A stretch of 64,000 nt of DNA, from positions 1,056,001 through 1,120,000 of the forward strand of contig JBMNHS010000001.1 in NCBI GenBank assembly GCA_050950505.1, written 5' to 3'. Every line of letters starts with the position of its first letter. Position 1 is the first letter of the stretch. The notes beneath the pieces are model-generated. The model was not told the origin of the DNA and ran no database searches. It saw only the letters and a program-made list of their open reading frames with translations. Both the position numbers and the translations under genes were made by a program. Shown piece by piece: positions 12,842-19,090 of this stretch. This DNA comes from Candidatus Methanomethylophilaceae archaeon. Its GTDB lineage: Archaea; Thermoplasmatota; Thermoplasmata; Methanomassiliicoccales; Methanomethylophilaceae.

Positions 12842-12928
12842 TGGTGCGGGGGATGGGATTTGAACCCACGAACCACTAAGGACAGGATCCTAAGTCCTGC
12901 GCCGTTGGCCGGGCTTGGCAACCCCCGC
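12842..12928 (-). tRNA. tRNA-Leu (anticodon TAG)
   Basis: GCGGGGG acceptor, CAGGA-CTTAGGA-TCCTG anticodon arm, long variable arm, GGTTCAAATCC, encoded CCA. Confidence 0.95.
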
Positions 12929-15479: not shown

Positions 15480-15508
15480 CGAACCGTATCGAATAAAAAT
15501 TAAAAGTT

Positions 15509-15619
15509 GCAATGATACCGGCGGCACTTCGCACCGGCATCACTGCGCGTGCATCCCATAAACAAGAGGTTTGGAGGCGCGGGCCGGTATACGAGTCCCA
15601 TCCTTTGACCGGCCCGCAC
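15509..15619 (-). other. Two-hairpin structured 3' element downstream of RHH gene
   Basis: 12-bp and 15-bp stems whose mismatches are all G-U on the minus strand; U-rich tail. Confidence 0.6.
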
Positions 15620-15630
15620 ATATCGGTTCT

Positions 15631-15996
15631 TCATTTCAATTTCGAAGCCATCTGTGCCAAATCGAAAGCATTCTCGACGGTCTTTTTCATACCGGATTCG
15701 GGAATGATTTTTTCCAACACAGTGTTTCTCACGAATTCCTCCTCCGTAAGGCAAATCCCTTCATCCTTAAGAGTGGAAAGCATGATCATCTGCAACTCCG
15801 AAAAGCGGACGAAGATTCCGCTTTCATCCTCACGTGCGTCTTTGGCACCGGGTGCATCTCCGGAAACGAACGCTCGGATTGCGGCACGGATGAGATTGGA
15901 TCGATTTCCGATATCCGGGTTCTCTTCTACGAAGTCTTCCATAATCTGGACTTCTTCGGGTCCCATCCTGAGAGTTACCTTGATATCATCCGTCAT
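15631..15996 (-). CDS. Tandem ribbon-helix-helix (CopG-like) DNA-binding protein
   Basis: KVTLRM..RSNLIRAAIRAFV and IFVRF..EEFVRNTV. Confidence 0.75.
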   Translation of the reverse strand: MTDDIKVTLRMGPEEVQIMEDFVEENPDIGNRSNLIRAAIRAFVSGDAPGAKDAREDESGIFVRFSELQMIMLSTLKDEGICLTEEEFVRNTVLEKIIPESGMKKTVENAFDLAQMASKLK

Positions 15997-16219
15997 TCAC
16001 TCACCGTGCCACAGAGCTTGTAGAGTCCCATCCCTTCAGGCTCTGGATATACCATGTAAGACGGAGTATTTAAAAGTGTCGGGCATTGTCCTACTTTGTC
16101 CGACGGATTTGTATAAGAAATATCATACGGCTGCGCTTTTCATACGTACGCACATGATAGAGGTATAGAATAGTATATAATCGGTGTGGACTTCTTCACG
16201 AAATCATCGGGTAATGTAA

Positions 16220-19090
16220 ATGGAACTTGACCACACTAGCATAGAAGAGAAGTGGCAGGAAGAATGGTCGGAGACGGGAATCAGCATAGCTTCCCGTGAC
16301 GACAGGCCCAAATTTATGATAATTTTCGCCTATCCCGGAGTTACGGGATATCTTCATGTCGGACACCTTCGCGGTTATACGTATACCGACGCAATCGCTC
16401 GATACAAGAGAATGTTGGGATACAACGTCATGTTCCCCGTGGGCACTCATGCCACGGGAAACGGTGCAATCAGTCTCGCGAATCGCATCAAGAGGGAAGA
16501 TCCGGACATAATCGAATACATGAAAAGTAACGGTTGCACCGATGAAATTCTCAAAACTCTGACCGAACCCATGGCCGTCGTGAATTATTTCAATGATATT
16601 TACGTCAATGATTATTGGAAGAGATTCGGATTCCTGGCCGATTGGAGGAGATTCACCTGCACACTCAATCCCGATTACGGCAAGTTCATCGAGTGGCAGT
16701 TCAGAAAACTCATGGATGCCGGTCTTCTGATTCAGAAACCTTATTTCGCTCCCTTCTGTCCGAACTGCGGCCCGGTGGCAATCGATGCTTCCGAAACCGA
16801 TATTTCCAAGGGAGGCAGCGCCGAAGTTCAAGAATACGTTTTGATGAAATTCGAATTCGGAGAGATGAAACTGATTGCCGCCACCCTCAGACCCGAAACG
16901 GTGTACGGTCAGGTCTGTTTCTGGGTCAATCCCGATACCGATTATGTGAAAATAGAATACGGTGAAGAAGTCTGGATTGTTTCAAAACCTGCCGCCGACA
17001 AGCTGAGAATGCAGTATGACGGCATCGAAGATTTCGGAACCGTCAGAGGAAGGGATCTTGTGGGTTGGACCTGCAAAGCCCCCATGGTGGGAAGAATCAT
17101 CCCCATATTGCCCGCAACATTTGTGGATCCGGAAGTGGGAACCGGTATGGTAACCTCGGTACCCTCGGATTCTCCTGACGATTACATCAATCTGAAATAC
17201 ATCAAAGATCACCCCGAAGAATACAAAAAATACGGAATCGAAGAAGAGTTGATAGCTTCGATAGAACCGATTTCCATAATAGATATCGAAGGATACAGCG
17301 AATTCTCTGCCAAAGACGTGATTGAGGAAATGGGAATCACAGGTCCCGACGATCCAAAACTGGAAGAAGCCAAGAAGAAAATCTACAGAGACGGTTTCCA
17401 CTCCGGTGTGATGAACGCATCCAGCGGATCTTATGCAGGAATGCGGGTCGAAGAAGCCAAAGAAAAGATGAGGGACGCCATGTTGGAATCCGGTGAAGCG
17501 GTGCTTCTCCACGATCTGTCCGAAGAGGTCGTCTGCAGATGCGGCGAGAACGTCCGCGTGAAAAGAATCGACGATCAATGGTTCATAGATTACAGCGGCG
17601 AGGAACTCACGAAGAAAACCTCCGATCACTGCAGGGAAATGAGCATTTATCCCCCGGAATACCAAACCAACATTCACGGAACCCTCGACTGGTTCCGGGA
17701 ACGTGCCTGCGTCAGACAGGGCAACTGGTTGGGGACAAGGTTTCCCTTCGATGATAAATGGATCATCGAAGCCATATCGGATTCCACTCTGTATCCGATA
17801 TATTACGTAATATCTCTTTACGCCAACACCGGCAACATAAAACCGGAAGGAATGAACGAATCTTTCTTCGATTACGTCATACTCGGAAAAGGCGATGAAA
17901 ACGAAGTCGCCGAGGAATCGGGCATCACTCCCGCAGTTCTCAACAACATCCGCGAGGATGTGAAATACTGGTATCCGCTGGATGTGAATCTGGGCGGAAA
18001 AGAGCACATGACCGTGCACTTCCCAGCTTTCCTGTTCAATCATATGGCGATACTTCCCGAGAAGATGCAGCCGAAGGGAATCGTTGTCAATTGGTACATC
18101 ACCGGCAAACAGTCGAAGATATCCAAGTCAAAGGGAGGCGCCCAACCCATACCCGGAGCCGTGAAAACCTACGGGGTGGATGCCATGCGTCTGTATTATT
18201 CCCATGTGGCTTCCATGTTCATAGACGTGGAATGGAACGAGGAGATTCTGTTTTCGTACAAACAGAGGGTGGACAGAATCTTTGCTTTCGCCAATGATCT
18301 CATAGAAACCTCCGGCCCCAAGAAAGGCATCGATAAATGGCTGCGCTCCAGATTCCAGACCCATGTGTCCAATATACGGGACATCATGAAACGTTATGAT
18401 CTCAGACAGATGGCCACTTCCGTTTATTACGAAATGTACAATGACCTTAGGTGGTATCTCAGACGGGGCGGTGCCGACAACGAAACTCTGATGGACGTGT
18501 TGAAGATATGGGTTCAGAGCATGATGCCCATAACCCCCCACATGGCCGAAGAGCTTTGGAGTCTGGCGGGCTTCGAAGGAATGGTGTCCGAATCCCTTTA
18601 TCCCGAGCCAAGGGAAAGATACCCCATGGCGGAATACGGCGAGGATCTCATACGTTCCACGATATCCGACGTGTCTCAAATCAGAAAGGTCGCCGAAATC
18701 GAACCGTCAAAAATCTGCATATACACATCGCCTTCCTGGAAGAAGGATGTATACCGCATCGCCGCGGATATTCTTGATTCCGGCGAAGAACTGACGATTC
18801 CCATACTTACCAAGGAAGTCATGTCCGATCCGGAAATCAGGGCCAACGGCAAAGCCGCTTCCGAACTTTCGAAGAAAGTCGCCGTGGAACTTATCCGGGA
18901 GGATCCGTCAAGGATACGCAGGTATGCGGATACGGACGAATTCGGAATCATCAAAGAAGCCGCGGAATTCCTCGGGGAAGAATTGGGTTCCGCCGTATTG
19001 GTGTATGATGCCGACGACAAGGGAAAATACGACCCCAAGAACAGATCTTCCGTGGCGGTTCCCGGAAGGCCCGCGATATATCTTGAATGA
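16220..19090 (+). CDS. leuS: Leucine-tRNA ligase (archaeal type)
   Basis: LHVGH, ATLRPET, GTGMVTSVPSDSP, KISKSKG, PGRPAIYLE. Confidence 0.97.
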   Translation: MELDHTSIEEKWQEEWSETGISIASRDDRPKFMIIFAYPGVTGYLHVGHLRGYTYTDAIARYKRMLGYNVMFPVGTHATGNGAISLANRIKREDPDIIEYMKSNGCTDEILKTLTEPMAVVNYFNDIYVNDYWKRFGFLADWRRFTCTLNPDYGKFIEWQFRKLMDAGLLIQKPYFAPFCPNCGPVAIDASETDISKGGSAEVQEYVLMKFEFGEMKLIAATLRPETVYGQVCFWVNPDTDYVKIEYGEEVWIVSKPAADKLRMQYDGIEDFGTVRGRDLVGWTCKAPMVGRIIPILPATFVDPEVGTGMVTSVPSDSPDDYINLKYIKDHPEEYKKYGIEEELIASIEPISIIDIEGYSEFSAKDVIEEMGITGPDDPKLEEAKKKIYRDGFHSGVMNASSGSYAGMRVEEAKEKMRDAMLESGEAVLLHDLSEEVVCRCGENVRVKRIDDQWFIDYSGEELTKKTSDHCREMSIYPPEYQTNIHGTLDWFRERACVRQGNWLGTRFPFDDKWIIEAISDSTLYPIYYVISLYANTGNIKPEGMNESFFDYVILGKGDENEVAEESGITPAVLNNIREDVKYWYPLDVNLGGKEHMTVHFPAFLFNHMAILPEKMQPKGIVVNWYITGKQSKISKSKGGAQPIPGAVKTYGVDAMRLYYSHVASMFIDVEWNEEILFSYKQRVDRIFAFANDLIETSGPKKGIDKWLRSRFQTHVSNIRDIMKRYDLRQMATSVYYEMYNDLRWYLRRGGADNETLMDVLKIWVQSMMPITPHMAEELWSLAGFEGMVSESLYPEPRERYPMAEYGEDLIRSTISDVSQIRKVAEIEPSKICIYTSPSWKKDVYRIAADILDSGEELTIPILTKEVMSDPEIRANGKAASELSKKVAVELIREDPSRIRRYADTDEFGIIKEAAEFLGEELGSAVLVYDADDKGKYDPKNRSSVAVPGRPAIYLE

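Follow-up and report, generated by a model that had tools for sequence, protein, structure and literature searches.

We report a pair of hairpins, one at either end of the message of a ribbon-helix-helix (RHH) gene, whose loops carry the same 11-nucleotide (nt) motif, GGATGGGACTC, and which we read, with a probability of roughly 0.65, as kissing-loop target sites for a small RNA (sRNA) predicted to be encoded in trans. The hairpins lie in a stretch of 64,000 nt from a Candidatus Methanomethylophilaceae archaeon (assembly GCA_050950505.1, contig JBMNHS010000001.1, positions 1,056,001 to 1,120,000), referred to throughout as the window. The proposed sRNA, a hairpin of about 70 nt whose apical loop is the reverse complement of the shared motif, appears to be a riboregulator of a regulon for division and segregation that resembles that of CdrS. 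How the two partners are built and conserved, which signals orient the sRNA and where the two are complementary are all read from the DNA.

Next to nothing is known of how archaea control cell division after transcription, and the system described here offers a sequence-defined RNA partner together with three conserved targets (SMC, a small protein and, along with ftsZ, a CdrS-like regulator), at which the exact predicted pairing sites are open to mutation and compensation. The sRNA is found in most of the Thermoplasmata lineages sampled, including gut and rumen Methanomethylophilaceae and the Methanomassiliicoccaceae, and because some of those methanogens are in culture the prediction is directly testable.

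In what follows G000 is the genome that holds the window (1,326,829 bases, with coordinates given on C1), G001 onward are the genomes of relatives, f1, f3-f6, f13 and similar labels denote families, and L-numbers denote fetched loci. Two covariance models were used, R1 for the hairpin of the 5' untranslated region (UTR) and R2 for the sRNA, and a small gene of unknown function among the targets is called gene X. All features of the RHH locus are read on the minus strand of the window.

Two hairpins with a common loop motif

The sequence-only reading had described two hairpins flanking the RHH gene, with unrelated stems and a shared loop motif, followed by a U-tract. All of these are present, with the 11-mer at 16033-16023 and again at 15603-15593. 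The 5' UTR hairpin (16009..16046) begins 21-22 nt after the TATA box and is supported by RNAfold, R1 and covariation; its outer stem joins CAGAGCCTG (CAGAGCCUG, 16045-16037) to CAAGCTCTG (CAAGCUCUG, 16020-16012) with one C.A mismatch, and within the loop a conserved inner stem of 4 bp, AGGG/CUCU, leads to a hexaloop AUGGGA. The 3' hairpin (15577..15619) has a stem of 12 bp with one G.U pair, formed by GTGCGGGCCGGT (15619-15608) and ACCGGCCCGCGC (15588-15577), and holds the loop CAAAGGAUGGGACUCGUAU, the second site complementary to the sRNA. What the two hairpins have in common is the loop motif only: R1 gives 52.2 bits at the window's 5' hairpin and fails as a model of the 3' hairpin, to which it assigns no score at E<=10.

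Counted within the window, the motif is unremarkable. With up to one mismatch there are four matches where 1.58 +/- 1.16 are expected (8 of 100 shuffles reach four), and a 9-mer occurs three times against an expectation of 0.86 (6 of 100 shuffles reach three). A scan of the whole genome for further copies, as the sequence-only reading had proposed, finds the exact 11-mer only twice in 1,326,829 bases, both copies being at the RHH locus and in the same orientation; as a control, the reversed pattern has no copy in G000.

Conservation separates loop from stem. The 5' loop GAAGGGAUGGGACUCUAC is kept in 24/24 f1 loci viewed while the stems vary, and was not found in the six loci of other families viewed; R1 detects the element in 23/24 f1 genomes. 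All six outer-stem pairs of the 5' hairpin show changes on both sides (6/10 pairs of the structure). An unfitted MAFFT alignment gives it a covariation score of 0.215, compared with 0.142 for shuffles (1/500 reach it), and 79.5% of its cells pair against 74.2% in shuffles (0/500 reach that value; in slid controls the figure is 11-55%). For the 3' hairpin, intergenic in relatives, the paired share is 87.2% and compensatory changes occur at 4/8 pairs (0/500 shuffles), and in G007, a second genome that lacks ftsZ, it is kept with double compensatory changes in its stem. The alignment of orthologous loci thus combines stems that covary in both hairpins with a nearly invariant loop motif, which bears out the earlier suggestion of a recognition element displayed twice.

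Several readings of the motif were tried and set aside. It matches the 3' end of the 16S rRNA, GGATCACCTCCT, poorly for a Shine-Dalgarno sequence, and the RHH gene has a GGTGA box of its own. Its AUG, taken as the start of a leader peptide or an N-terminal extension, is in frame in G006 and out of frame in G000 (an ATGA overlap), and since the nucleotides are conserved and, by eye, the peptide is not, this reading was rejected. The 5' UTR has just two G-tracts, too few for a G-quadruplex. At the RHH locus no Rfam 15 family comes near its gathering score; PtaRNA1, which overlaps best, reaches 19.7 bits on the 3' hairpin where 47 are called for (E 0.88), and we regard this match as noise. As the sRNA locus described below likewise has no match, the earlier remark that no described family is recognisable holds for both partners.

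A predicted small RNA gene with the complementary loop

Within f1, R1 finds a second, syntenic site about 37 kb away from the RHH 5' UTR; fetched and viewed in 15 genomes, it lies between SRP54 and a convergent gene. In G000 the corresponding sRNA gene occupies C1:1034449-1034520 on the plus strand, at a distance of 37.5 kb from the RHH gene and outside the window, which begins 21.5 kb further on. In most f1 genomes (G016 and G018 being exceptions) SRP54 follows it immediately and in the same orientation; by eye, SRP54 has its own TATA box and looks leaderless.

The transcript is predicted to be about 70 nt long and to form a single extended hairpin with helices P1 (6 bp), P2 (7 bp) and P3 (5 bp) and a 13-nt apical loop, UGCAUCCCAUCCC, of which the shared loop motif of the RHH message is the reverse complement. 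On the strand opposite to the motif a TATA box lies about 23-25 nt upstream, with invariant TTTATATAG-type columns in 15/15 aligned sequences; TATA-like boxes occur in the other 36 copies viewed, about 22-30 nt upstream over all copies, and a T-run follows the hairpin in nearly all of them. The strand of the sRNA is fixed by these promoter and terminator signals, by which the gene also has a promoter and terminator separate from those of its neighbours, as a trans-encoded sRNA should. The hairpin itself is 97.4% paired, with compensatory changes at 5/13 pairs (0/500 shuffles; slid controls 38-60%), and its 24 G.U cells become A.C mismatches if the structure is read on the motif strand.

R2 matches 146/151 genomes of the order (118/119 of those of high quality) and 112/151 genomes of the class, in 23/27 families; there is no match in f14 (0/18), f17 (0/3), f22 (0/15) or f23 (0/2). 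An exact 23-mer from the sRNA core is found in at least 120 contigs of metagenome-assembled genomes labelled Thermoplasmata, Methanomassiliicoccales or Methanomethylophilaceae. At the sRNA locus (L070, L078, L080) Rfam gives no match at E<=10. A tRNA or tRNA-like identity was rejected (ARAGORN finds 0 genes in L091), as was, on inspection, that of a box H/ACA guide: the 3' tails vary (GCACUUUU, CCCAAACC, CCCAACCCC) and share no ACA box, while invariance is confined to the apical loop.

The sRNA loop is divergent in f13 and f19. That of f19 (L329-L331, L337, L338) continues into a second C-rich repeat, ...CAUCCCAUCCCACCAUCC, and this lineage may accordingly have extra targets of its own.

Sites complementary to the sRNA in three gene families

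Complementarity between the 5' UTR loop and the sRNA extends over two contiguous blocks of 12 + 6 nt, GAAGGGAUGGGA (16037-16026) followed by CUCUAC (16025-16020), with a short sRNA bulge between them. By our own arithmetic, a match of 12 + 7 nt with a gap of 0-5 nt is expected about 6e-5 times in G000. The 3' loop AAAGGAUGGGACUC and, in relatives, a box just before ftsZ, GGGGGAUGCAC, are shorter pieces of the same sRNA complement, and all target variants are sub-strings or deletion variants of the sRNA-site sequence GUCAGAAGGGAUGGGAUGCACUCUAC. The 5' UTR target hairpin of f1 and the sRNA gene have the same layout, a hairpin with the motif in its loop, and share 19/22 nt.

Perfect complements of 9-20 nt recur at the RHH-ftsZ intergenic region, in the SMC 5' UTR and before gene X, with the motif on the mRNA strand at every target. 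In f3-f6 all 10 RHH loci fetched carry one (19, 16, 16, 14, 20, 16, 19, 16, 16 and 14 nt), nine of the ten being read as intergenic and downstream of the RHH gene. The 5' UTR of SMC holds complements of 9-16 nt in 30/30 loci viewed and also in G000, whose SMC leader carries AGAAGGGAU together with GGGAUGGGAUG abutting the GUG start. At gene X a complement of 10-15 nt, placed in the ribosome-binding region, ends about 4 nt before the start codon in 13/13 loci. No site for the sRNA was seen at SepF in G000.

The 13-mer AGGGATGGGATGC is present in 148/151 genomes, against one hit in total for its reversed control. Of the 42 copies in genomes G025-G040, 26 lie outside the sRNA gene, and these extra copies fall in the SMC 5' UTR and before gene X. 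G029 (f6) has no 13-mer at its RHH locus and carries AGAAGGGATGGGGTGCAC there, and the G020 loop GAAGGGAU-AUGCACUC finds its match elsewhere in the same sRNA. A-to-G changes in the targets of G022 and G028 would yield G.U pairs, and the target of G188 matches its own divergent sRNA over 15 nt, compared with at most 11 nt for the sRNAs of other lineages. Complementarity is kept at orthologous positions in three unlinked gene families, that is, at mRNAs encoded elsewhere than the sRNA, as is characteristic of trans-encoded sRNAs.

A second element recurs at the targets. GTCNGACA repeats or palindromes are found ahead of the RHH gene in relatives, of SMC in families other than f1 and of gene X (L286-L300, L316-L328); outside f1, SMC and gene X carry a GTCCGACA...GTCGGAC palindrome. 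The RHH promoter carries three such repeats. GTCNGACA has the look of an operator at which one transcription factor, which may be the RHH protein, would act on all of these genes.

Gene X (L316-L328, for example L271:718-957) encodes about 75-100 amino acids with the motif DWMxxHTIGDLK and has no Pfam match. With the query used it was found in 13/16 genomes outside f1 and in 0/24 f1 genomes, and the palindrome and the sRNA site always stand in front of it. Its product is a candidate for a new division or segregation factor.

The RHH protein, ftsZ and the loss of FtsZ

The RHH gene of the window (15631..15996) encodes 121 amino acids, and orthologs of its product were found in 40/41 genomes searched. 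The assignment to the ribbon-helix-helix fold made from the sequence is supported by the matches of 17/21 orthologs to RHH_8 (PF17723), with 13/21 matching RHH_1 (PF01402); the window's own protein falls below the Pfam cut-offs and is assigned by orthology. Matches of PDB profiles fall on both halves of the protein, indicating a tandem ribbon-helix-helix, and the protein is CdrS-like by its position beside ftsZ in relatives.

By pattern search, a short ftsZ lies at most 400 nt downstream of the RHH gene in 27/30 loci, and G025, with a Pfam tubulin match 256 nt downstream, is the 28th such locus. The two exceptions are G000 and G007. In the window the RHH gene is followed by a convergent iorB, with no ftsZ next door, and G000, which is 99.6% complete, has no match to FtsZ/tubulin PF00091 anywhere, compared with 38/41 relatives that have one. 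In f1 the sole strong PF00091 match is the short ftsZ (235-290 amino acids) beside the RHH gene; G015, the closest relative to retain ftsZ, gives a weak match (E 4e-18). G007, also without ftsZ, is 76% complete. SepF is present in G000 (C1:767227), and Snf7 was not found there in a search whose control was weak. To judge from the assembly, G000 has lost FtsZ entirely yet retains the RHH protein, SMC, SepF and the sRNA, and a nearly complete genome of this kind poses the question of how the organism divides.

In relatives, two to three copies of the motif lie between the RHH gene and ftsZ, with GAAGGGAUGGGA directly after the RHH stop codon and GGGGGAUGCAC immediately ahead of the point where ftsZ begins. 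The possibility that GGGGAUGCAC is ftsZ coding sequence was rejected, because the box occurs in all three frames relative to ftsZ; the ftsZ-proximal GGGGGAUGCAC is therefore non-coding. As G000 has no FtsZ, the 3' region in the window is a remnant of this intergenic element.

In G008 (L016) there is no canonical start codon in frame before the conserved N-terminus of FtsZ, which may reflect a non-canonical start or an assembly error.

Organisation of the RHH locus

The promoter of the RHH gene in the window has a TATA box, TTTAAATA (16067..16074), and an A/T box is conserved at the same place in orthologous loci. Just upstream of it are three 8-nt repeats, GTCGGACA, GTAGGACA and GCCCGACA (16077..16104), which form a putative operator. 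The Shine-Dalgarno sequence GGTGA (16001..16005) corresponds to a GAGGTGA-like box at the same place in relatives. Downstream of the 3' hairpin, ATGGGATGCAC (15549..15559) is a relic of the GGGGGAUGCAC box and is complementary to GUGCAUCCCAU of the sRNA. It is followed by a long hairpin containing G.U pairs (15509..15546), which is also present in G007 and is probably part of the terminator, and by a T-tract, TTTTAATTTTTATT (15492..15506), an archaeal termination signal whose function here is inferred. All three hairpins of the locus are predicted by RNAfold. The sequence-only reading had passed over the inner stem AGGG/CUCU, ATGGGATGCAC at 15559-15549 and a near-copy of the motif inside the reading frame, GGATGGGACCC (15958..15968), which spells codons R-M-G-P of the conserved TLRMGPEE.

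The divergent neighbour of the RHH gene is that for leucyl-tRNA synthetase (16220..19090, plus strand), and this neighbourhood is conserved in 26/30 loci. Four type-II tRNA genes, at window 12842-12928 (minus strand) and G000:C1:311461, 623922 and 806684, carry in the 3' strand of the T-arm and acceptor a sequence, AAUCCCAUCCC, that is identical to the sRNA loop over 10-12 nt. ARAGORN assigns the tRNA of the window to Leu(tag) and two of the others are Leu by eye. The match is probably a coincidence.

Proposed regulation and alternative explanations

We propose that a loop-loop (kissing) contact would nucleate the pairing of sRNA and RHH mRNA, and that pairing would alter translation of the message, its stability or both; in relatives it would also occlude the ribosome-binding region of ftsZ. 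Since several sites overlap or abut ribosome-binding regions, repression is the outcome we consider somewhat the likelier, given that the pairing is real. Expression of the sRNA, its pairing in vivo and the direction of regulation are what we infer from the features above. The sequence-only reading had supposed a factor acting on the 5' UTR; the recognition element it described stands, and the factor is most likely a trans-encoded sRNA and not a protein.

A number of observations weigh against this proposal. The in-frame near-copy GGATGGGACCC may be accounted for by protein conservation alone. The strand and ends of the sRNA are taken from sequence signals, and among metatranscriptome contigs from 4 of the 8 runs found none spans L091:1443-1648, in which the sRNA occupies L091:1501-1572, although these were assembled contigs only and the gap is uninformative. 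Exact complements of 10-12 nt to the sRNA also occur elsewhere in G000 by chance, and a duplex-energy scan of the genome ranks the RHH site only about fifth among windows, with G-rich background swamping the signal. RNAcofold gives net energies of just -4.5 and -2.0 kcal/mol for the two hairpins, from a program that cannot model kissing loops (shuffles of the core do as well in 0/200 and 2/200 cases, respectively). The sRNA of the same lineage is the best or tied match in 6/8 target regions and not the best in 2, with G188 the one clear case; as both sides are nearly invariant, the evidence from co-variation of sRNA and target is thin.

The proximity of the motif to a DNA operator tells in the same direction, and it is the basis of another explanation, by which GGGATGGGATGC would be a DNA element that forms a composite operator with the GTCNGACA palindrome. 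The RHH protein, or some other factor, would bind it, and the sRNA gene would contain a further operator of this kind. The motif is always near such an operator: at SMC and gene X it follows the palindrome by 0-25 nt, and the same repeats are in the RHH promoter. However, every copy is downstream of the promoter and on the strand that is transcribed, those of f1 are placed in the loops of RNA hairpins with covarying stems, the copies between the RHH gene and ftsZ are hundreds of bases from the operator and past a stop codon, and the copy in the sRNA gene is in the apical loop of a covarying hairpin, all of which make a DNA element improbable. We think it similarly doubtful that GGGAUGGGA is bound by a protein which, like CsrA of bacteria, recognises GGA-type motifs in the hairpin loops of RNA. 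The placing of the motif in loops with covarying stems and the overlap of its copies with ribosome-binding regions would suit such a protein, but the complementary sRNA would then be unrelated, so that a class-wide hairpin RNA with the exact complement in its apical loop, and the complementarity of the variants to different parts of that RNA, are left unexplained; nor has a candidate protein been identified.

Chance resemblance among G-rich sequences, with a motif devoid of function, draws on the counts within the window, which are within reach of shuffles, and on the G-rich 10-12-mers complementary to the sRNA elsewhere in G000. It is very hard to reconcile with the exact 11-mer occurring only twice in the genome, both times at the RHH locus, with a loop invariant across f1 while the stems vary, with perfect complements of 14-20 nt recurring at orthologous positions in many families, or with a control pattern that has one hit in 151 genomes. 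A role for the 3' hairpin, or a fragment excised from it, as a decoy or sponge that would set the amount of sRNA reaching the 5' UTR and the other targets is compatible with kissing-loop targeting, and develops the decoy of the sequence-only reading. The 3' hairpin and its motif are under selection in G000 and G007 despite the loss of ftsZ, the strong hairpin and T-tract downstream could stabilise a 3' fragment, and relatives have two to three copies of the motif between the RHH gene and ftsZ; the element of the relatives lies, however, inside the operon directly before ftsZ, which fits ordinary target sites equally well, and we hold a decoy to be an outside prospect.

Kissing-loop targeting by the sRNA can be extended, tentatively and with rather more doubt than belief, to a wider scheme. 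The RNA of about 70 nt would be a class-wide cell-cycle riboregulator of the Thermoplasmata that works with a CdrS-like RHH factor, their shared targets being marked by the GTCNGACA operator and an sRNA site, and the RNA would set the levels of the RHH protein, FtsZ, SMC and the small protein. The 5' UTR hairpin of f1 would be an inverted copy of the sRNA gene, and the circuit, kept in a genome without any FtsZ or tubulin, would govern FtsZ-independent division too.

Comparison with known systems

Neither Rfam 15 nor the literature found contains this sRNA family, its class-wide range, its link to a CdrS-like regulator, ftsZ and SMC or the display of a loop at both ends of a message; literature searches, which included the 11-mer CATCCCATCCC and Methanomassiliicocc* sRNAs, returned no description of the sRNA. 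Archaeal sRNAs such as sRNA154, sRNA162 and sRNA41 of Methanosarcina mazei and those of Haloferax act in trans and pair with 5' UTRs or ribosome-binding sites, and to our knowledge no such archaeal sRNA is class-wide or tied to division or segregation genes. Complementary loops on both partners are familiar from CopA/CopT of plasmid R1 and RNAI/RNAII of ColE1, which are cis-encoded on opposite strands of one locus. The partners described here likewise hold their complementary sequences in hairpin loops, but they are encoded 37.5 kb apart and there are several target genes.

The protein side of the circuit resembles the haloarchaeal cdrS-ftsZ2 arrangement, in that relatives have a small RHH gene directly upstream of, and co-oriented with, ftsZ. 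In Haloferax, knock-down of CdrS lowers ftsZ1, ftsZ2, sepF and an smc homologue, and cdrS mRNAs are both mono- and bicistronic (PMC8406309); synteny of cdrS and ftsZ has been reported across archaea (PMC7439475). The likeness is one of fold and gene position, not of sequence comparison with haloarchaeal CdrS: the window's protein is a tandem RHH of 121 amino acids where CdrS is a single small RHH, and a position upstream of ftsZ is seen in the relatives and not in the window, G000 being without any ftsZ. The two CdrS papers describe only transcriptional control, the term 'sRNA' being absent from both and 'hairpin' from PMC7439475, so that an RNA layer on a CdrS-type circuit would be new.

Among bacterial RNAs, DicF, OxyS and StsR are trans sRNAs that pair near the ribosome-binding sites of division genes, as is proposed for the archaeal sRNA; they are narrow in range or prophage-borne, whereas the archaeal sRNA is class-wide and goes together with SMC and an RHH regulator. 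That sRNAs may act by base pairing through C-rich loops is well established, and closest in form are the 6C RNA of Actinobacteria and RsaE/RoxS of Firmicutes, stable hairpin RNAs in which a C-rich loop pairs with G-rich mRNA, often at ribosome-binding sites. 6C has itself been linked to cell division. The C-rich loops of 6C bind several mRNAs without a chaperone (PMC6486639). These RNAs are bacterial, have no relation in sequence or in Rfam to the sRNA reported here, and possess two or more C-rich loops, whereas the archaeal sRNA is predicted to be one hairpin with one loop, its complementarity to targets extends up to 20 nt, and two of those targets are displayed in conserved hairpin loops of their own.

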